Shown: one piece after another, positions 9,645-47,214 of the stretch
How positions within the stretch are numbered: position 1 is the stretch's first letter
Layout of the letters: every line of letters starts with the position of its first letter
Source: a virus
Lineage: Duplodnaviria > Caudoviricetes
DNA: 63,266 bases
Virus record (IMG/VR): IMGVR_UViG_3300045970_000244
Span: 1 to 63,266 of that record
Direction: 5' to 3' (one strand)
Made by a program: the position numbers and the translations under genes
The notes under the pieces: model-generated
The model's database searches: none
The model's input: only the letters and a program-made list of their open reading frames with translations
What the model was told of the DNA's origin: nothing

Positions 9645-10363
9645 CCTCCCTGCCCCACAGTCTTCCTCAAATATTTCTGACCTTGCTTGAACTGTGTAAC
9701 CGAGCCCGGTTCAGCCTCTTGCTTGCCACCGTTCAACTCCTCGGGCGAGAGGTCAGAGTTGTTGTACTTGCCGATGTTCACGGTCTGCGGTTTGACGATC
9801 TTGAGCTTGACGAGCTGGAGCGTGAAAACCAACGTCTGCCCCGTGGCTGCGTCGCGCGGCACACTGATCGACTTGATGACCATCGAATCGTACCGGTTGA
9901 GCGTCGTGAGAACGTCAAACGGCTTGCGCTCCTCTTGGAGCTTGAGGAGTTGCGCGTAAGCCTGAACAGATGGGCTCTCAGACTTCTTGAGAGCGTTGAA
10001 CAGCGCCATTCCCACGCCGGCCGCGACGATTCCAATCGGAGGGATGAAGTGCGAGGCCACTGCTGTGAGCGCCGAGTTGATGACCGAGATTGGCGTGTCG
10101 GTGATGATGCCCTGAATCTCAAGGGCCTGCTGCTTCAGGATGATGTGGTCGGAAACCGTGCCGCCGTCTTCCAGTTCGAACTCGGTTGGCGGGCTCTCGC
10201 GCGAGTGGGTTTCCTGCGTGGTGCAGTCGATCTCGATGACGGTCTTGTTCTCTCGGATGATCTGGACCTTCTTGCCCTTGCCAGAAATCAGGTTGGTCAG
10301 GGCCGAACCCGCTGCGCTTGCGACCCCAACACCTCCGAGACTGCTCAAGCTGGGTAAGCCCAT
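9641..10363 (-). CDS. Tail tube initiator / Dit-like baseplate protein
   Basis: ID.T..E.H.RES..TEF..EDG..VSDH motif; follows tape measure. Confidence 0.8.
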   Translation of the reverse strand: MGLPSLSSLGGVGVASAAGSALTNLISGKGKKVQIIRENKTVIEIDCTTQETHSRESPPTEFELEDGGTVSDHIILKQQALEIQGIITDTPISVINSALTAVASHFIPPIGIVAAGVGMALFNALKKSESPSVQAYAQLLKLQEERKPFDVLTTLNRYDSMVIKSISVPRDAATGQTLVFTLQLVKLKIVKPQTVNIGKYNNSDLSPEELNGGKQEAEPGSVTQFKQGQKYLRKTVGQGG

Positions 10364-11850
10364 CAGTAAGCTACCGCCGTTCCTGTGCTGCGTCGGGTTT
10401 CGCGCATCATGCGGTCAAGGTGTTCGCGGACACCCTCTTTGACCTTGTTGCCGACTTCTCCCGGGTTTGTGCCGGCCGGTACGTTCACCGTGATCGGAGC
10501 CTCTACGCTATACGATGCACCGGCTTGATTGTTCACTACAGACGAAAGCGCCGTACCAGCGTCGGTCGCTGGGATGCCGAACTTAGACTCAACGGGAGCT
10601 CCGTCGTTCGCCCCGAAGAACCCAGCCACCTTATCGAACGCGCCGGAAAACGTGCCCTTGATAGCGTTCCAAGAGCGCGCGATCAGCTCGATGGTGGTCT
10701 TCACGATGTCGAGCGCCTTGATCCACTCCCAAAACTGCTGGAGCCACGTGGGCTGGCCGTTGAGGATTGCCCAGAGCTCATGAATGACGAGAATCACCGA
10801 GCCGACCACCGCCAAGATGGTGAGGAATGGCAACCCCACGACGACCTGAAGCGCAGCGACGGCCTCCGTGATGAAGGTAAACACCTTGGCCACCGTCGTC
10901 AGGACGGTAATCACGCTGCCGACGACCTTCATGAGCATGGTGATGCCGATGACCAAGCTCACCACTGCCATCACGGTCGACATGATGTTCTTCTCGAACC
11001 CGAACGCCTTGGCGAACCTGACGACTTCTTCGGTGAGGTACTTGAACGCCTCCCAAAGAAAACCAGCGCCAAACGCGACGTCCTCCAGCCACTTCGTGAA
11101 GTTCAACTGCACGATGTCCCGGTTGACGACGAAAAACTTGATCATGTCGTTGATGATGTACTTGAACAGCGGCGCGACCTCGGCACCAATGGTGGCGCCC
11201 AAAGCCTTGAACAGCGTCCAAAGTTTTTTCAGCGTGTCGCCGAAATCCTTGAGTGCCCTCACCTTGTCTTCGCTCAATATCAGGCCAAGTTTTTCGGCCT
11301 CGGTCATCTGGTCTCTGATTGCCTTTGAGCCCTCGGCGATCCACCCGGCCATTCTTTGTGAGCCGCGCCCAAGCAACTGCTGGCTTAAAGCGACGCGCTC
11401 GATGGGGTCTTTGGTGGCCTTCATTCGGTCGGAAAGTGCAAGAAGAACCTGTTGGGAGTTCTTGAACCCGGCGATCTGATCTGGCGAGAACCCGGCCTTG
11501 GCAAAGGCCTCTTGCGCTTGGGCAGACCCTTGGCGCGCCATGTACAGGTTTCGCGTCAGGCGGGTGAGGCCGGTTGAAAGTTCTTCTTGACTTACGGCGC
11601 TCTGGCCTGCTGAAAACGCGAGCTTTTGGAAGGATTCAACTGTGATGCCGGCGCCCAAGGCTGCTACGTGCAACTGCTCACCGAAGTCCGCCATGCGCTC
11701 GGTCATGTGGAACAGGCCCTTTACGACTTCGACTGTGGCGAGAAAATTGAGGCGGTTCTTGATGGCGTCAAGGCGGTTTTCAACCGACTTTAGCTTGTCG
11801 GTTTCGATGTCGAAGCCCCACTTGGTCAGCATTGACCGCATCGTGTCCAT
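10363..11850 (-). CDS. Tape measure protein (short, 495 aa)
   Basis: Helical, Ala/Lys-rich with hydrophobic C-terminal segments; follows tail chaperones. Confidence 0.85.
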   Translation of the reverse strand: MDTMRSMLTKWGFDIETDKLKSVENRLDAIKNRLNFLATVEVVKGLFHMTERMADFGEQLHVAALGAGITVESFQKLAFSAGQSAVSQEELSTGLTRLTRNLYMARQGSAQAQEAFAKAGFSPDQIAGFKNSQQVLLALSDRMKATKDPIERVALSQQLLGRGSQRMAGWIAEGSKAIRDQMTEAEKLGLILSEDKVRALKDFGDTLKKLWTLFKALGATIGAEVAPLFKYIINDMIKFFVVNRDIVQLNFTKWLEDVAFGAGFLWEAFKYLTEEVVRFAKAFGFEKNIMSTVMAVVSLVIGITMLMKVVGSVITVLTTVAKVFTFITEAVAALQVVVGLPFLTILAVVGSVILVIHELWAILNGQPTWLQQFWEWIKALDIVKTTIELIARSWNAIKGTFSGAFDKVAGFFGANDGAPVESKFGIPATDAGTALSSVVNNQAGASYSVEAPITVNVPAGTNPGEVGNKVKEGVREHLDRMMRETRRSTGTAVAY

Positions 11851-23964: not shown

Positions 23965-25464
23965 TCATCGCCATTTGCTCGGGCCAGTGAAACTTATCGG
24001 TGCCCAGTCTGTCGGCATCCCTTCGTTCAAACGTGTCAGGGCTTGCGACGTGCTGTCAATCTGGTCGTCGTGTGCGCCGTTGGGAAACACGGCCCACTCT
24101 TCAACGTAGTCATGAATCCACGGGGCAATGCTCGGGTCCGGCAGTATCACATTGCCGGCCTCTATGCTTGGCGTCACGGCTTGGGCTCGTGCGAGCTTGG
24201 CGCCACGGGGTCTGATGGGGATCATGCCGGGGATCTTGTTGCGGAGCGTGTCGATCATCGCAGCGCCGTTGGCGGCCTCTTCGACGAGCTTGGCGTGCGC
24301 GGCGGGCCACTTTGCCGTCAGCGTCATGATGGCCATGATGGTCTCGGTGAACGTGAGCCGGGCCCTCACCTGATCCAGCAGATATTTGTTCGCGCCGATC
24401 TTCCCCCAAACCTGCCCAACAACAAAGTCTGTTTGCGGGCCGTCTTTGAAGGTCAAATCCCACGACTGAATGATCTGGTCGAACGCGCTCGTGGCCGGGG
24501 CTTCGCGGTAGTACTTCCACCACCCGCGCTTGATTAAGGTGCCCTCCTCTGGTGACGGGCGCTGCTGGTAAAGCGAAGACCACACGCGCCGTGAGGCCGC
24601 TTTGATCTTGCCCATGTCCTCTAAGCTGAACACAGAGGGCCACAGGGGTTCGCCTATCTTGCGCGGGTCTTCGTCGTTGGAGTCGTCTTCCCTGATGGCT
24701 GGGAACGACAGCACCGTCCATTGGTCGGCCTGCGGGTCGTCCTTGGCGAGCTTGAGGAGCCGGCCGGCGAGGTCGTCTTCGTGCCAGCGGGTCATGGTGA
24801 GCAGGATTCGCGCGGGCGTGCCGTCAGCGGCGTCCTTCAGCCGGGTGCGGGCCGTGGACATGAACCAGTCAAACTGATGCTGCCGGAAGGTTTCGCTGGA
24901 CGCTTCCTTCATGTTTTTCACCGGGTCGTCGATGATGAACGTGTTGGCCGTCTTACCCGTGAGCGATCCGCCCACGCCCACGCTGTGATACTTGCCCTTT
25001 CGGTTGACGATCTCAAAGACCTCAGTGTTACGGGCCCAGTTGCTGTCGCGCCCATCCGAGAGCTTCACGTCCGGGAACAAGGCGCGGTACTTCTCGCTGT
25101 CGATGATGCGCTGTACGTCTCGGTTGAACTGCGCCGTGAACTGCCACCCGTACGACGCCGCGATGATGTTGTGGTCCGGGTCCTTCCCGAAGATGTACGC
25201 GGGCAGGTGCCGGCTCACCATCTGTGACTTACCGATCTGCGGCTGCAGGAAGATCATCAGCCGGGTAATCTCTCCCTTTACGAATCTCTCCAGATACCGC
25301 GCTATCAGCCTGTGATGCCAGTTGATCTTGAACTCGGGCATCGTGTACTTGGCGAACGATAGGAAGTTCTCGCGCCCGAACGAGGCGACCTTCTCACTGG
25401 TGAGGTCGTGCCACGTGGTGAGCTCGTTATTTCTGGTGTTCAATAACTCTGGGCTTGCTTCCAT
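23965..25464 (-). CDS. terL: Terminase large subunit
   Basis: Walker A PQIGKS, Walker B IIDDPVK, MTRWHEDDL, SWD, FPNGAHDDQID. Confidence 0.95.
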   Translation of the reverse strand: MEASPELLNTRNNELTTWHDLTSEKVASFGRENFLSFAKYTMPEFKINWHHRLIARYLERFVKGEITRLMIFLQPQIGKSQMVSRHLPAYIFGKDPDHNIIAASYGWQFTAQFNRDVQRIIDSEKYRALFPDVKLSDGRDSNWARNTEVFEIVNRKGKYHSVGVGGSLTGKTANTFIIDDPVKNMKEASSETFRQHQFDWFMSTARTRLKDAADGTPARILLTMTRWHEDDLAGRLLKLAKDDPQADQWTVLSFPAIREDDSNDEDPRKIGEPLWPSVFSLEDMGKIKAASRRVWSSLYQQRPSPEEGTLIKRGWWKYYREAPATSAFDQIIQSWDLTFKDGPQTDFVVGQVWGKIGANKYLLDQVRARLTFTETIMAIMTLTAKWPAAHAKLVEEAANGAAMIDTLRNKIPGMIPIRPRGAKLARAQAVTPSIEAGNVILPDPSIAPWIHDYVEEWAVFPNGAHDDQIDSTSQALTRLNEGMPTDWAPISFTGPSKWR

Positions 25465-31240: not shown

Positions 31241-31495
31241 TCAGTTCCCCTTCTCGTTGAGTCGCCCGTTTTCTTGGGCAATCTGTTTTACGCGGGCTTC
31301 GATTTCTGCTATCCGCGCTTCGTTGTATAAAAACTTCATGAGTAAGGCCCGGCGTTCAGCGTAAGTGGTGCGCTTTGCCTCATCAGGTGAAGGCAGGTAG
31401 GACGCGATCAGTCGAATCTGCTCGTCGTCGGTCAACATACTGAAGATTCTCTGCGCCTCAGCCCTACGCCGAAAGCCCTCGTACCTATTATTCAC
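31241..31495 (-). CDS. Hypothetical protein
   Basis: GTG start (GTGA overlap) MNNRYEGF... Confidence 0.55.
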   Translation of the reverse strand: MNNRYEGFRRRAEAQRIFSMLTDDEQIRLIASYLPSPDEAKRTTYAERRALLMKFLYNEARIAEIEARVKQIAQENGRLNEKGN

Positions 31496-31779
31496 TTGCG
31501 CACCAATCGTTTCCGCCCAAGCTGTTCGACTATCTCCCAGCCGAGGTCGTTGAGTTTCAATTCCAGCACTGGGAACCTCTCGCACATCTGCGACCATCCG
31601 ACGGCATGTTGGGTAATGTGGTGAAGACGACACATTGAGATTAAATTGCTCACGGCATCGCCTCCACCACTCCCCCGGCTCTGAATGTGACAAGCGTCCC
31701 CCGGACGCCGACAGATCACACACGGAGCACCACTAATTGATTTGAGTAGGCTGCGATCCCTGAGCCTGTACTTTGCCAT
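31492..31779 (-). CDS. Zn-binding HNH-like protein (DUF968/DUF1364-like)
   Basis: PCVIC...DACHIQSRGSGG.D...NLI.MCRLHH..QH..GW. Confidence 0.75.
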   Translation of the reverse strand: MAKYRLRDRSLLKSISGAPCVICRRPGDACHIQSRGSGGGDAVSNLISMCRLHHITQHAVGWSQMCERFPVLELKLNDLGWEIVEQLGRKRLVRK

Positions 31780-32854
31780 CGGTAAGGTACGCCTTGTTGA
31801 GTTCATCGGCCAAAGAAGAACTTGGCGCTGTCCCGACGGCGTCTCCGTCCCATTCGATGATTCCGATCCCGGAAAGGATGTCTGGGAACATGTCTTTCAG
31901 CGCCCAACTTCTTGCTCGCATTTGCAACATTCTCTTTGGGTATGACTTCCAAACGTCTTTCCCCCAAAGTCCGGCGCGTTTGGCGTCTTCCACTGAAAAA
32001 TCACGAACGATTGGGTCAAATCCCGTGCGCTTGAGGGTACATTCTGCGTATTTTGGACTTAAGTCTTCATTATGGAAAAACACTTCCTTGATCGACTCTA
32101 AAAGACCGGATTTCATGACCAAAGACAGCGGTAAATCCCCAAATAGGCTCGGCGTCCCATTAATGACCGCTATCTTTCCAACAGAGGACATTGGAGGAAG
32201 ACCAAGTTCTCGACAAATTTGAAGAGCAACCAATATTTTTTCCGGTGAATTCAGTCCTCGCGGCATCAGTCCGCTTCTGTGATACGCCGTAGCGAGCCGA
32301 AACTCTTCTTCAAGGGTTGAGCCAACTAGGACGCCATTGTCCTTGGCTTGTAGGGCGGTAGGTCTGGGTTGAGTCGTCGCCGGTAGATTGCTCGTTGCTC
32401 GCGCTGTCTCGTGTTCACGCAAGTTCGACACGCTCGTTGATTCTTTCGCGCTACCAGATTCGCTCCGCTCAGCGGATGTCCGGCCGGGCAATGCGTCTTC
32501 TTCTGATAATGGTGTCGGCCCTTCTGTATTTTGTCGCCCGCGTTGTCCTTGTGCGTCCCCAGAAAGAGGTGTTCCGGGTTCACGCACGCTGGGTTGTCGC
32601 ATTTGTGGCAGACCAGAAGTTTTCCCAGTATCGCTCCCTTGAAGTGGAGATACGAGAGGCGATGTGCAAGATGAAGCCTCTTTCTCCCTTCCCCGATTAC
32701 TCCGTACCCCTTGTTGGTTTTGGCCGCTATCCACTGCCAGCATCCCTCCGTTTTGCGCACCTTGCTCCAAAATCGTTCCGTCAGTTTCATAGTCTTCCCA
32801 CTTCATGTCGTTTGCGATCTGGGCTTCACTTTTGTTTTCCGTTTTGTTTTCCAT
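31733..32854 (-). CDS. RecT-like single-strand annealing protein with long disordered N-terminal region
   Basis: [30 protein letters not shown]...[22 protein letters not shown]; adjacent to RecE-like exonuclease. Confidence 0.85.
32326..32790 (-). CDS. HNH homing-type endonuclease nested in recT in another frame
   Basis: RFWSKV...CWQW...GYG...AHRLSY...[24 protein letters not shown] plus KTHCPAGH...R.CRTC zinc motif. Confidence 0.9.
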
Positions 32855-33069
32855 TGTTCCGTTTCCTCTGTGGCCCGAAGCCGCACCCGTAAGGCAAGAA
32901 TTTGGTCAAACAGAAAGGTAATCTGCGTCCAGACGTGGGTTTCCGTCAACGGGGCTCCAAACTGTGTCTGGAACTCCTCGTGCATTGCCTTTCTCTCTGC
33001 CTCCAACTTGCTCACGTATCCGCCTCGGTCTATGGTTATTTGGGGTGCCCCGGCGGACGCGGTGCTCAT
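32803..33069 (-). CDS. Hypothetical protein
   Basis: Likely start MSTASAG; overlaps the recT 5' end. Confidence 0.5.
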   Translation of the reverse strand: MSTASAGAPQITIDRGGYVSKLEAERKAMHEEFQTQFGAPLTETHVWTQITFLFDQILALRVRLRATEETEQWKTKRKTKVKPRSQTT

Positions 33070-33180
33070 AACATCCAAGCCCGCCGGAGCGATGTCTGGG
33101 CTCACTATCAATAGTCTGTTGAGACTGAACCCAAACCTACAAACGCCCTTGCAATAAAGCAAGGTATTATATTTATTTTT

Positions 33181-34083
33181 TCATTCTTCGTCGAAGTCTG
33201 GGACCGACACCCATTCCGGGACCGTCACTGGAATCGCCCTCTCCGGGTAAGATGGCCAGATGTTCACCTTTAAACACTCAGCGTAACGCTTGGTGAGCAT
33301 CGCCCTCCATTGCTCGGCCGGCGCCAGACAACCCATATCGAGCGGGTAAATCATGATGCCGTAGGGCGGTTCCTTCTCGATTGCCACGATGGTCGAAGCC
33401 TCTGACTTGCTGATCCCAGCGACGCGCAAACAGTGAACATAGTGCGCCGCTTGGAGCGCGTACCACGGTGAGCGCGGGTGATTACTGAAGATGGCGTTCG
33501 TCATGTGCCCCGGGCGCGCGTCGATACTCGTCTTGAAGTCCACCAGAAACCCCTCCTTGCTGATGAAGTCGGGCCGGCACTTCAGCTTGACGCCGGTTTC
33601 CGGGTCTTCAACAACGAGCGAGGTTTCGCGCACGCCGCCCATGAGCATCTTGCCCAAAAGGCGGTGCGAGCTTATGGCCTCCAAAACACCGATGAGCATC
33701 CGTTCTTCTTCCTCACTGACGAACACGGCGTCACTCGGTTGGGCCGCAAGCCAGTTCTTTTTGGCTTCACGGGCCTCAGCCGATTGCGTGCTGTCGCGAC
33801 CGTCCTTGGTCTTGCCGACGAACACGGGCACGCGCTTCATCTTCTTGAGAAGTTCGGGCCCGATCTGCAATGCGAGGTGTACCAGAGAACCAGCCTTCAT
33901 CGCGTCCGTCGGTTCCTTCTTGTTCGTTTTGCTCAGCAGGTAATGTCGTGGGCTTCGGTAAAGTTCATAGAGATCGCCGGAGCGCAGAGCGTCGATGGCG
34001 TCGTACATCTCGTACGATAAGCCGCTGATGAGCTTGCCAACCTCGGGCTTGAACGCCTCGGTGGTTTCAACAGTGGGCTCCAT
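33181..34083 (-). CDS. RecE/ExoVIII-like PD-(D/E)xK exonuclease (DUF3799-like)
   Basis: TDAM..GS.VH, E.S....DPETGV.LKCRPD, VDFKTS, Y.LQAAHY, IEKEPPY. Confidence 0.9.
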   Translation of the reverse strand: MEPTVETTEAFKPEVGKLISGLSYEMYDAIDALRSGDLYELYRSPRHYLLSKTNKKEPTDAMKAGSLVHLALQIGPELLKKMKRVPVFVGKTKDGRDSTQSAEAREAKKNWLAAQPSDAVFVSEEEERMLIGVLEAISSHRLLGKMLMGGVRETSLVVEDPETGVKLKCRPDFISKEGFLVDFKTSIDARPGHMTNAIFSNHPRSPWYALQAAHYVHCLRVAGISKSEASTIVAIEKEPPYGIMIYPLDMGCLAPAEQWRAMLTKRYAECLKVNIWPSYPERAIPVTVPEWVSVPDFDEE

Positions 34084-45491: not shown

Positions 45492-45802
45492 AAACGAAAA
45501 CTGATAAGCGCCAGCAGTTTCTGGACTGGGTGAATCGCACATTCAGGCCCGAGAGCGCGAAGCACCCGGTCGCTTTTAAGACCGCTGACGGCCGGTACGT
45601 CGTCACGTCGGAGTGTTCCGCCATTTACCCGAAGGATGAGCAGGACGAAGTGGTTTCGATCTCGCTCCCGGTGGTCGACTATTATGGTGAGTACCGAGGC
45701 GGCTACGCTTGGATTCATCCCAAAATTATTCGGAAGGCCCAAGAGATGCGGCTCCACATTGAGTGGGAGAACGCCGCCTGCATTAACATCTACGAGGAGT
45801 AA
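45488..45802 (+). CDS. Hypothetical protein
   Basis: GGAGG RBS. Confidence 0.7.
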   Translation: MKTKTDKRQQFLDWVNRTFRPESAKHPVAFKTADGRYVVTSECSAIYPKDEQDEVVSISLPVVDYYGEYRGGYAWIHPKIIRKAQEMRLHIEWENAACINIYEE

Positions 45803-45806
45803 AACC

Positions 45807-46523
45807 ATGAGAACCACTATGTTGACCGTTTTTCTGATGTTCCTCAGTGCCCCGGCCATCGCCGGGATGTACCACGAGGCCGACGTCATGGAGGCTCTGA
45901 CCAAGGGCCGGATGTGCGACAGCAGTGTGGTCGGGGACCGCCTCATCAACTTCGACGAGGACGTAACCGAGGACATGCTGTTTGAGGCCGTCACCCGCGA
46001 GTGCAGCAAAGAGCTGATCGAGAAGTTCATGCTCAGGATGAACCGGGGTCAGTTCCTCAAGGTGCAGAAGATGTTCGCGGACGCCATCAAGGTGCCGGAC
46101 TTCCGGTGGAACGATGACCGTGGCAACCACTTTGCGTACGCGGCGGGCGTGTTGTTTGCACAGGCCGAACTCGGGTGCACGAAAAAACAGGTGACAGAAT
46201 ACTGCCCGTTCCGCGACAACCTCCAGAAGACCTTCGACGAGCTTGAGGCCAAGGGTAAGGCAGAGGCCGCAGCCCGCCCCAAGAACAAGATTCCCGACGA
46301 CTGGTGCCAGATGCTCAATCAGCGCGACCGGGCCCAGCGGGAGATCGCCAAGCAAAAGGAGATCGCCAAGATCAGCGGTGCCTTCGACAAGTCTGAGGCC
46401 TACCGCTGGGGTCAGGAGCTTTACAACGTGAATCAAGAGCTTGCCCCACGCGAAGCCATCTACAAGAAGAATACCGGCGGCAAGAAACTGAACCTTGACC
46501 TCTGTCCCGCAACGATTCGCTAA
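45807..46523 (+). CDS. Secreted/periplasmic Cys-containing protein
   Basis: GAGGAG RBS; signal peptide MRTTMLTVFLMFLSAPAIA|G; six Cys in the mature part. Confidence 0.75.
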   Translation: MRTTMLTVFLMFLSAPAIAGMYHEADVMEALTKGRMCDSSVVGDRLINFDEDVTEDMLFEAVTRECSKELIEKFMLRMNRGQFLKVQKMFADAIKVPDFRWNDDRGNHFAYAAGVLFAQAELGCTKKQVTEYCPFRDNLQKTFDELEAKGKAEAAARPKNKIPDDWCQMLNQRDRAQREIAKQKEIAKISGAFDKSEAYRWGQELYNVNQELAPREAIYKKNTGGKKLNLDLCPATIR

Positions 46524-46554
46524 CCAAACCCGATAACCCATAAGGAGTACACGT

Positions 46555-46986
46555 ATGGAAAAATCGAAACTCGGAAACAAGAAGCCCCAAGTCAAACCGC
46601 CCGTCTTCGGTGATCGCGACAGGAAGGTCACCATGCGCAACGCCGTTGCCGACGCCATCAACAAGCTCGTCGGGCAGCTCAAGCAGAAGGAGATTGAGAT
46701 CGCGCCGATGAAGCGCCGCCTCGCCTTCCTGCGCACGGAGCTGGCACGCCTCAACCGGGCCCCGGGAAGCAACAAGCCCGGCCCCGCGCCCAAAAAACCC
46801 GGCCCGAAACCCACGACGAAGAAGGTCGCCAAGAAGGCCGGCCCCAAGAAGGGCACCAAGCCCAGCCCGAAAGCGATGGCCGCGCTGAAGCTGTACTGGG
46901 AGAAAAAACGGGCCGAGAAAGCCGCAAAGGCCGTTGCGACACCGCCCGCTGCACCAGAAGCAAACAACGGAAACAAAGCAGCTTGA
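46555..46986 (+). CDS. Lys/Pro/Ala-rich histone-like DNA-binding protein
   Basis: Coiled coil then KKPGPKPTTKKVAKKAGPKK...SPKAMAALKLYWEKKR; TAAGGAG RBS. Confidence 0.7.
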   Translation: MEKSKLGNKKPQVKPPVFGDRDRKVTMRNAVADAINKLVGQLKQKEIEIAPMKRRLAFLRTELARLNRAPGSNKPGPAPKKPGPKPTTKKVAKKAGPKKGTKPSPKAMAALKLYWEKKRAEKAAKAVATPPAAPEANNGNKAA

Positions 46987-47214
46987 TTTTTGCTGGTCAC
47001 GGTGGCTGGACGAACACGGTCACCGTGATTTCCTTTTGAACCACTCGGAACAAAAGGCCCTTTATTTTTCCAAAGATTTTCCTTTTATTTTGCTAAAGAA
47101 TGAGCTAAAACTAAGGGCACAAGTGCAACTTCTGCACGAGAACGGTTGGCGAAGCTCCGGCCCATGACTGTCGCTAAAACCGGTAACGCAAATGGGCCAA
47201 CAGGAGCAATCCAC

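Follow-up and report, generated by a model that had tools for sequence, protein, structure and literature searches.

The locus described here raises the question of how a phage can carry a complete HNH endonuclease gene inside its recT gene, in another reading frame, and still read recT. The stretch analysed, hereafter the window, is the IMG/VR virus record IMGVR_UViG_3300045970_000244, a complete record of 63,266 bases with terminal repeats, a G+C content of 56% and most of its genes on the minus strand. In it, an intact open reading frame (ORF) coding for an HNH endonuclease lies over its whole length inside a 373-codon recT ORF, in frame +1 according to the ORF list, and the same nesting of a complete HNH ORF inside the recT-frame ORF is found in two diverged relatives, L009 and L006, with both frames intact, stop codons depleted and start signals laid out around the nested gene. 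The answer that we consider probable is that recT is translated through the insert and that the resulting RecT carries a disordered, overprinted N-terminal extension. The features concerned are the following, all on the minus strand.

31733..32854, minus strand: long recT ORF, 373 codons, made up of the N-terminal extension and a RecT/Red-beta-type annealing protein
32326..32790, minus strand: intact HNH_3 (His-Me finger) endonuclease ORF, 154 codons, in recT frame +1
32432..32854, minus strand: recT-frame N-terminal extension, 141 codons, without RecT homology and mostly the HNH gene in its -1 frame
31733..32344, minus strand: structured RecT core, beginning at about residue 171 as judged by secondary structure and predicted local distance difference test score (pLDDT)
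32326..32328, minus strand: HNH stop codon TAG, formed by bases of the Leu-Val codons in G-V-L-V-G, a conserved RecT motif

The sequence-only reading, an earlier note made from the letters of the window without database searches, had described the nested ORF as complete in its motifs and wholly contained in recT, which was borne out by the ORF coordinates, by Pfam HNH_3 (PF13392; E 2.3e-9, 37.2 bits with a cut-off of 24.8), by PHROG 826 'HNH endonuclease' (2.5e-38) and by a family alignment of 26 sequences, in which the protein retains 17 of 17 invariant columns. Catalytic and zinc-binding residues are conserved, with H62, N66, H74, N83, C61/C64/C69 and the C-x2-G-H ... C-x2-C tail all present. 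The structure is predicted with a pLDDT of 91 and is folded up to residue 140 (nucleotide ~32371). Foldseek matched the model to I-HmuI (PDB 1u3e; probability 1.00, root-mean-square deviation 2.7 Å over 72 columns) and to I-PpoI (PDB 1a74; probability 0.98) with weak E-values (2e-3 to 1e-2), and the model shows the beta-beta-alpha-metal fold; a sequence search of the PDB with the HNH protein gave no match. The HNH gene of L009 ends on a TAG at exactly the same position, that of L006 four codons further on. As to the surroundings of the gene, an Rfam scan at E<=1 returned no intron family and one chance long non-coding RNA match, and the long ORF matched no Pfam family, Hint/intein included, with no dedicated intein-block tool applied, so no intron or intein signature is seen, in line with the earlier statement that intron core or intein motifs would have no room here. 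The ends of the insert, when checked for flanking repeats or a duplicated target, had nothing beyond short chance-like repeats. The gene is a free-standing one and most likely that of a homing endonuclease.

The host protein is a RecT/Red-beta-type annealing protein over the C-terminal two thirds of the long ORF. The ORF matches PHROG 561 'RecT-like' (1e-25) on residues 159-330, the family homology as a whole being limited to residues 145/159-330, and Foldseek related the RecT part to Red-beta 7ujl and RecT 7ub2 with a probability of 1.00. The Pfam RecT model found nothing in the window RecT at E<=0.01, and many of its close homologues carry PF03837. Homology, invariant columns and predicted structure all start at about residues 145-181, with the invariant columns beginning at G174 and the RecT homology picking up again some 10-15 residues ahead of the G-x-L-V-G motif. 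Up to about residue 165 the extension is predicted to be disordered (pLDDT <50, no secondary structure), as the earlier note had read it from its composition, and its sole conserved motifs are the conserved HNH motifs seen through the other frame. The extension is absent from 113 of the 120 best RecT homologues, whose first residues fall in the interval from -30 to +50 around the position of GTG 32431, so insert-free recT alleles exist; the remaining seven are long, each with an extension resembling that of the window. Given these starts, and homology beginning only at residue 145 or 159, the extension is an insert and not RecT, the first ~141-165 codons of the long ORF being the HNH gene in another frame. 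The insert takes the place of the unconserved N-terminal tail of RecT and is not situated between conserved host residues.

Upstream of GTG 32431, 158 codons follow one another in the recT frame without a stop. A naive calculation in the sequence-only reading had put the probability of such openness by chance below 0.1%; resampling of synonymous codons of the window HNH protein with the codon usage of the phage gave P = 0.00115, with a mean of 6.0 stops expected, and thus the same order of magnitude, but the empirical figure is weaker: among the 6647 windows of 155 codons that 53 further genes of the phage provide in this off-frame, 268 (4.0%) were likewise stop-free. Taken alone, the window is therefore open beyond chance only moderately. 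Scored by codon usage, the recT frame reaches -0.12 over the length of the HNH gene and so ranks in the top 1% of 388 windows read off-frame (mean -0.44); the HNH frame scores 0.03, low for a true frame (mean 0.34).

The comparison with relatives is more telling. The HNH-bearing recT loci available as DNA are three, namely the window, L009 (same contig as L002) and L006, and both relatives have a homologous HNH gene at the same place and in the same frame relation to recT. Their RecT cores are 50-59% identical to that of the window, and the HNH proteins of the three loci are 40-47% identical to each other in the family alignment (about 48% by tblastn). A stop in the recT frame requires an HNH codon ending in T to precede a codon starting with AA, AG or GA, referred to below as at-risk codons. 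Such stops across the HNH gene number none in the window, none in L009 and one in L006, and the T-ending codons are distributed as follows.

Window: T-ending before at-risk codon 0/39, elsewhere 16/115; Fisher p 0.0067; resampling P 0.00115
L009: T-ending before at-risk codon 0/50, elsewhere 19/103; Fisher p 0.00028; resampling P <5e-5 (0/20,000)
L006: T-ending before at-risk codon 1/54, elsewhere 13/93; Fisher p 0.017; resampling P 5e-5

Combined over the three loci, the within-gene Fisher tests give 5e-6. The control set was drawn from other viral contexts and comprised 80 loci carrying homologous HNH genes, several of them near-identical copies, and these genes contain 2-30 stops in the same frame, none having fewer than two; those with a gene G+C of 0.48-0.59 contain 2-16. 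The depletion of stops that the earlier note proposed to look for among homologous HNH inserts is thus present in the recT-linked loci (0, 0 and 1 stops). Its further expectation, that homologues should be free of stops in this frame, holds for L009 and is broken in L006 by the single stop near the HNH start. With the three HNH proteins only 40-47% identical, openness has been kept through long divergence, and on these counts the recT frame across the HNH gene is held open by selection, not by chance.

The base composition of the nested genes agrees with this. Third positions in the three recT-linked HNH genes contain 36-43% G and 9-12% T, resembling first codon positions, against 20-32% G and 20-31% T in controls of similar G+C. 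Such third positions and the codon usage given above are what dual coding predicts. The HNH gene is also richer in G+C than its surroundings in L009 (0.50 vs 0.46) and in L006 (0.52 vs 0.445) because T is depleted and G enriched at third positions; in most control HNH genes the difference is the opposite.

Reading recT through the insert also requires places at which translation could begin, and the recT frame has four candidate starts, for which the duplex energies rest on an assumed anti-Shine-Dalgarno motif and on longest-ORF starts and are indicative only.

32852..32854, minus strand: first recT-frame ATG; its ribosome-binding site, of the AGAGGAA type, lies 8 nucleotides upstream; duplex -6.0 kcal/mol
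32803..32808, minus strand: ATGA overlap of the recT-frame ATG 32806 with the TGA of ORF 32803..33162
32732..32734, minus strand: recT-frame GTG that falls within the HNH gene; 9 nucleotides upstream of it is a strong ACGGAGGG site (-10.0)
32429..32431, minus strand: GTG at the family-typical RecT start position, without a ribosome-binding site (-2.2), matching the starts of short homologues

Both upstream starts named in the sequence-only reading, 32854 and 32806, are thus present, the former with its AGAGGAA-type site, whose duplex energy equals the median of the gene starts of the phage, and the latter in the ATGA overlap. The ATG of the HNH gene (32790) lies 13 nucleotides past the upstream stop and has a weak ribosome-binding site. 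GTG 32734 (site GGAGGG) is a possible additional recT-frame start; its counterparts are ATG 2552 in L009 and ATG 2510 in L006, the latter of which has to be at or near the recT-frame start of that locus. In L009 the exonuclease stop overlaps the recT-frame ATG as ATGA, and the HNH ATG follows 22 nucleotides on with a strong AAGGAG site, so that in the window and L009 the two starts are 16-22 nucleotides apart. The roles are swapped in L006, where the ATGA serves the HNH frame and, past the recT-frame stop near the HNH start, the recT-frame ORF opens ~50 nucleotides inside the HNH gene at an ATG with its own GAAAGGA site. In alleles that lack the HNH gene, coupling is straight from the exonuclease stop to recT, through TGATG in L025 and with a GGAGG site in L008.

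These observations can be combined into the following mechanism. An HNH_3 gene would have settled in the 5' end of recT, just past its translational start signals, and displaced a short unconserved tail. The insert would stay in the messenger RNA (mRNA) unspliced, and ribosomes in the recT frame, having initiated by coupling at ATGA 32806, behind the ribosome-binding site of ATG 32854, or perhaps at GTG 32734, would read the HNH gene in its -1 frame, the product being RecT with a disordered N-terminal extension of ~115-158 residues. Selection would act against T at the third position of HNH codons ahead of codons starting with AA, AG or GA, and the HNH protein would be made separately from its own ATG 32790. 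The sequence-only reading had proposed a homing endonuclease that spares its host gene by overprinting instead of splicing; the selected openness of the frame and the lack of a splicing signature speak for it, while production and activity of the long RecT, and homing by the HNH enzyme, are inferences.

Several points weigh against translation of the full long form. Besides the indicative nature of the ribosome-binding scores and the 4.0% of comparable windows that are open, the RecT family homology and 113 of the 120 homologue starts lie near GTG 32431, and a short RecT may be made from an internal start, possibly alongside the long form. Full read-through is not universal, as L006 has its one stop and three long forms (P0005, P0013 and P0024) start within the HNH gene, and HNH-bearing alleles with a closed recT frame, called as short RecTs, could have escaped notice. 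At the amino acid level, the recT-frame identity among the three loci is 0.22-0.30 against 0.204 +/- 0.041 in 524 control pairs, and the identity in the third frame is also raised; the extension does not appear clearly more conserved than controls, with only openness and composition looking selected.

The likeliest of the other explanations, although we consider it unlikely, is that the frame is selected to be open while the functional RecT is short, whether openness serves ribosome delivery, mRNA unfolding or throttling of HNH, the long form is trimmed, or two isoforms exist. The disorder of the extension and its lack of visible amino acid constraint would be understandable if so; the recT-frame and HNH starts, being only 16-22 nucleotides apart, must compete; and N-terminal additions may disturb Red-beta/RecT assemblies. 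Against it, there is no stop between extension and core, so that ribosomes reading the extension make the long protein, no internal ribosome-binding site is found near the core, and we know of no processing site for the long RecT.

Quite improbable is the simpler view that RecT starts at about GTG 32431, that the HNH gene is an ordinary free-standing gene overlapping it by ~105 nucleotides, and that the open frame reflects chance or base composition. The sequence-only reading had named this late start as its alternative, and had taken a RecT N-terminus at or beyond this point as speaking against overprinting. The position is indeed the family-typical one, short homologues begin there (113 of 120, within the range given above), RecT homology is found from residues 145-159, and 4.0% of comparable off-frame windows in the phage are open. 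With an insert that is N-terminal and not internal, an internal start is therefore a formal escape. The recT frame is nonetheless kept open, with 0, 0 and 1 stops in three of three diverged loci (P from 0.001 to <5e-5 each) and none of 80 control HNH genes having fewer than two; the position lacks a ribosome-binding site in all three HNH-bearing loci; and the HNH fold, reaching residue 140, covers the family-typical start together with its possible signals.

Two further explanations are very improbable. In the first, a programmed -1 frameshift would lead from the HNH frame into the recT frame and yield an HNH-RecT fusion, with openness needed only past the shift site. The frame relation (recT being HNH -1) permits this and the window has a G GGA AAA heptamer at HNH codon 56, yet the position of the heptamer is not conserved (codon 118 in L009, none in L006), and in both the window and L009 an open recT frame with a coupled ATG of its own already precedes the HNH start. 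In the second, the HNH ORF would be a decaying remnant and the region now simply an N-terminal domain of RecT. This would suit the low codon-usage score of the HNH frame (0.03), but that frame is intact in all three loci at 40-47% identity, the window protein keeps 17 of 17 invariant residues at a pLDDT of 91, and the recT-frame product is predicted to be disordered and conserved no further than HNH imposes. The least probable explanation, a group I/II intron or an intein that is spliced out, draws on the fact that homing endonuclease genes usually reside in such elements, and is opposed by the Rfam and Pfam results given above and by an HNH gene that fills the insert in another frame, with a stop-free host frame that a spliced intron does not need.

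Translation of recT through the insert being the preferred reading, the distribution of the arrangement is of interest. Ten long RecT forms were found (window, L009, P0002, P0003, P0005, which is L006, P0012, P0013, P0024, P0122 and the divergent P0123, with an overall identity of only 32%), and eight extension-carrying relatives are known from protein sequence alone. Aligned to the window, seven of the ten start at or upstream of the HNH start and three inside the HNH gene. Eight long forms are dispersed within one 56-row subclade of a quick RecT tree, with five label changes; the origin of the insert may be single or multiple, one old insertion with losses and repeated homing both fitting this tree. 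Among the loci that the RecT alignment picked out in viral (4), metagenome (22) and genome (3) contigs, the HNH gene upstream of recT occurs only in L002/L009 and L006, and a tblastn search of 50,697 phage records matched 227 records, in none of which the extension was covered. In L015, a different HNH gene (1304-1846, 28% identical) lies downstream of recT and has 16 stops in its -1 frame.

Off-frame HNH peptide signatures were also seen in proteins other than RecT. They occupy residues 221-327 of P0124, a 553-residue PHROG 69 PD-(D/E)XK exonuclease, and residues 265-352 of P0125, a 512-residue SbcD-like Metallophos nuclease, in both cases mid-protein with host sequence present on both sides; both are available as proteins alone, and viral-contig scans with P0125, P0124 and P0123 gave no match. 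Going by these peptides, both probably represent internal out-of-frame HNH inserts in other repair genes. The C-terminal ends of P0121 (phage integrase fragment, residues 164-258) and P0126 (Sf6-type small terminase, residues 180-283) likewise run into an off-frame HNH signature, which could mean that a host ORF has been prolonged into an HNH gene lying downstream of it, or that the gene calls are artefacts. Because the signature occurs in two RecT subfamilies, in the middle of an exonuclease (P0124) and in the middle of an SbcD-like nuclease (P0125), it can be suggested, tentatively and with the balance rather against it, that the HNH_3 lineage is a portable read-through cassette whose -1 frame is kept stop-free and which settles in several recombination and repair genes without splicing. 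If it were, the reciprocal start layouts, in which recT has the coupled start in the window and L009 and the HNH gene has it in L006, would set the ratio of host protein to endonuclease through competition between start sites.

The genes around recT form a recombination module on the minus strand, which farther along also includes a single-stranded DNA-binding protein (SSB) gene.

33181..34083, minus strand: PD-(D/E)XK exonuclease, the RecT partner (Pfam DUF3799 2.8e-20; PHROG 412 8.4e-44)
32803..33162, minus strand: upstream ORF of 119 codons, its stop coupled to the recT-frame ATG
31492..31806, minus strand: HNHc_6-like small nuclease gene downstream of recT, overlapping the 3' end of recT by up to 74 nucleotides

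The exonuclease gene is found upstream of recT in 11 locus entries (10 distinct contigs), and the order exonuclease, recT, small nuclease is kept in 11 related locus entries (9 distinct contigs). The ORF 32803..33162 has the best codon usage of its three frames (0.106 vs -0.62 and -0.17), and Pfam, PHROG and database homologue searches gave no relative of it; related loci have different fillers or nothing at this place in the exonuclease-recT interval. Elsewhere in the window, three genes, at 10363-11850, 23965-25464 and 45783-47000 (minus strand), contain unusually long stop-free runs of 285, 237 and 208 codons, respectively, in the -1 off-frame.

On the usual view, homing endonuclease genes in or near essential genes survive inside introns or inteins, or else in the gaps from one gene to the next. 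An endonuclease gene that is out of frame and read through by its host gene represents a third way of life, which the recT case would extend to the phage recombination module, and the arrangement has been kept through deep divergence (about 48% protein identity). The avoidance of T at third positions before AA, AG and GA codons, measured against the 80 controls, provides a quantitative signature usable for finding more cases. For annotation, it matters that gene callers give either a long 'RecT' or the HNH gene, never both; and as RecT proteins are recombineering tools, the occurrence of a long, dispensable-looking N-terminal extension in some natural alleles is of practical interest.

Among known systems, the best structural matches of the HNH protein, the His-Me finger homing endonucleases I-HmuI and I-PpoI, share the HNH motif residues with it and are both intron-encoded, whereas the gene described here is not associated with an intron signature and the Foldseek E-values of the matches are weak. 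Free-standing homing endonuclease genes reportedly lie between phage genes or split them, as do the T4 seg/mob genes and mobE, which is said to split nrdA in phage Aeh1. The present gene resembles them in being an endonuclease gene without intron or intein at the junction of a DNA-metabolism module (exonuclease-recT), but theirs are said to leave the host gene intact or split, while here the host frame crosses the insert. Inteins with the homing endonuclease gene in a separate reading frame have reportedly been described in a 2025 preprint; they too combine an open host frame with an overprinted endonuclease gene, but the host-frame product self-splices, and no sign of removal is seen here.

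The closest counterparts are the ShiLan domain and the Pacc40 gp60 inserts, 'hidden' out-of-frame HNH genes in mycobacteriophage DNA methylase genes (Arsenault, Gosselin & Gogarten 2025, PMC11855218). They agree with the recT case in having a complete HNH ORF nested in another frame, a stop-free host frame, no intron or intein signature, an unstructured host-frame product and a patchy occurrence among alleles (PMC11855218). The literature searched contained no paper joining RecT, HNH endonuclease and out-of-frame, and recT is absent from the part covered of the article on methylases. The two cases differ in several respects: the recT insert lies at the extreme 5' end as an N-terminal extension, with the HNH tail and stop codon overlapping the first conserved RecT motif, whereas the ShiLan domain forms a loop within the protein, flanked by conserved residues; start signals can be recognised for both ORFs of the recT locus, whereas leaderless initiation was invoked for ShiLan (PMC11855218); and the carriers of the recT insert are diverged (about 48% identity), with the depletion of stops quantified against 80 control genes. 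The principle of out-of-frame read-through is thus not new, having been published in 2025 for phage methylases (PMC11855218), and recT is a new host gene for it.

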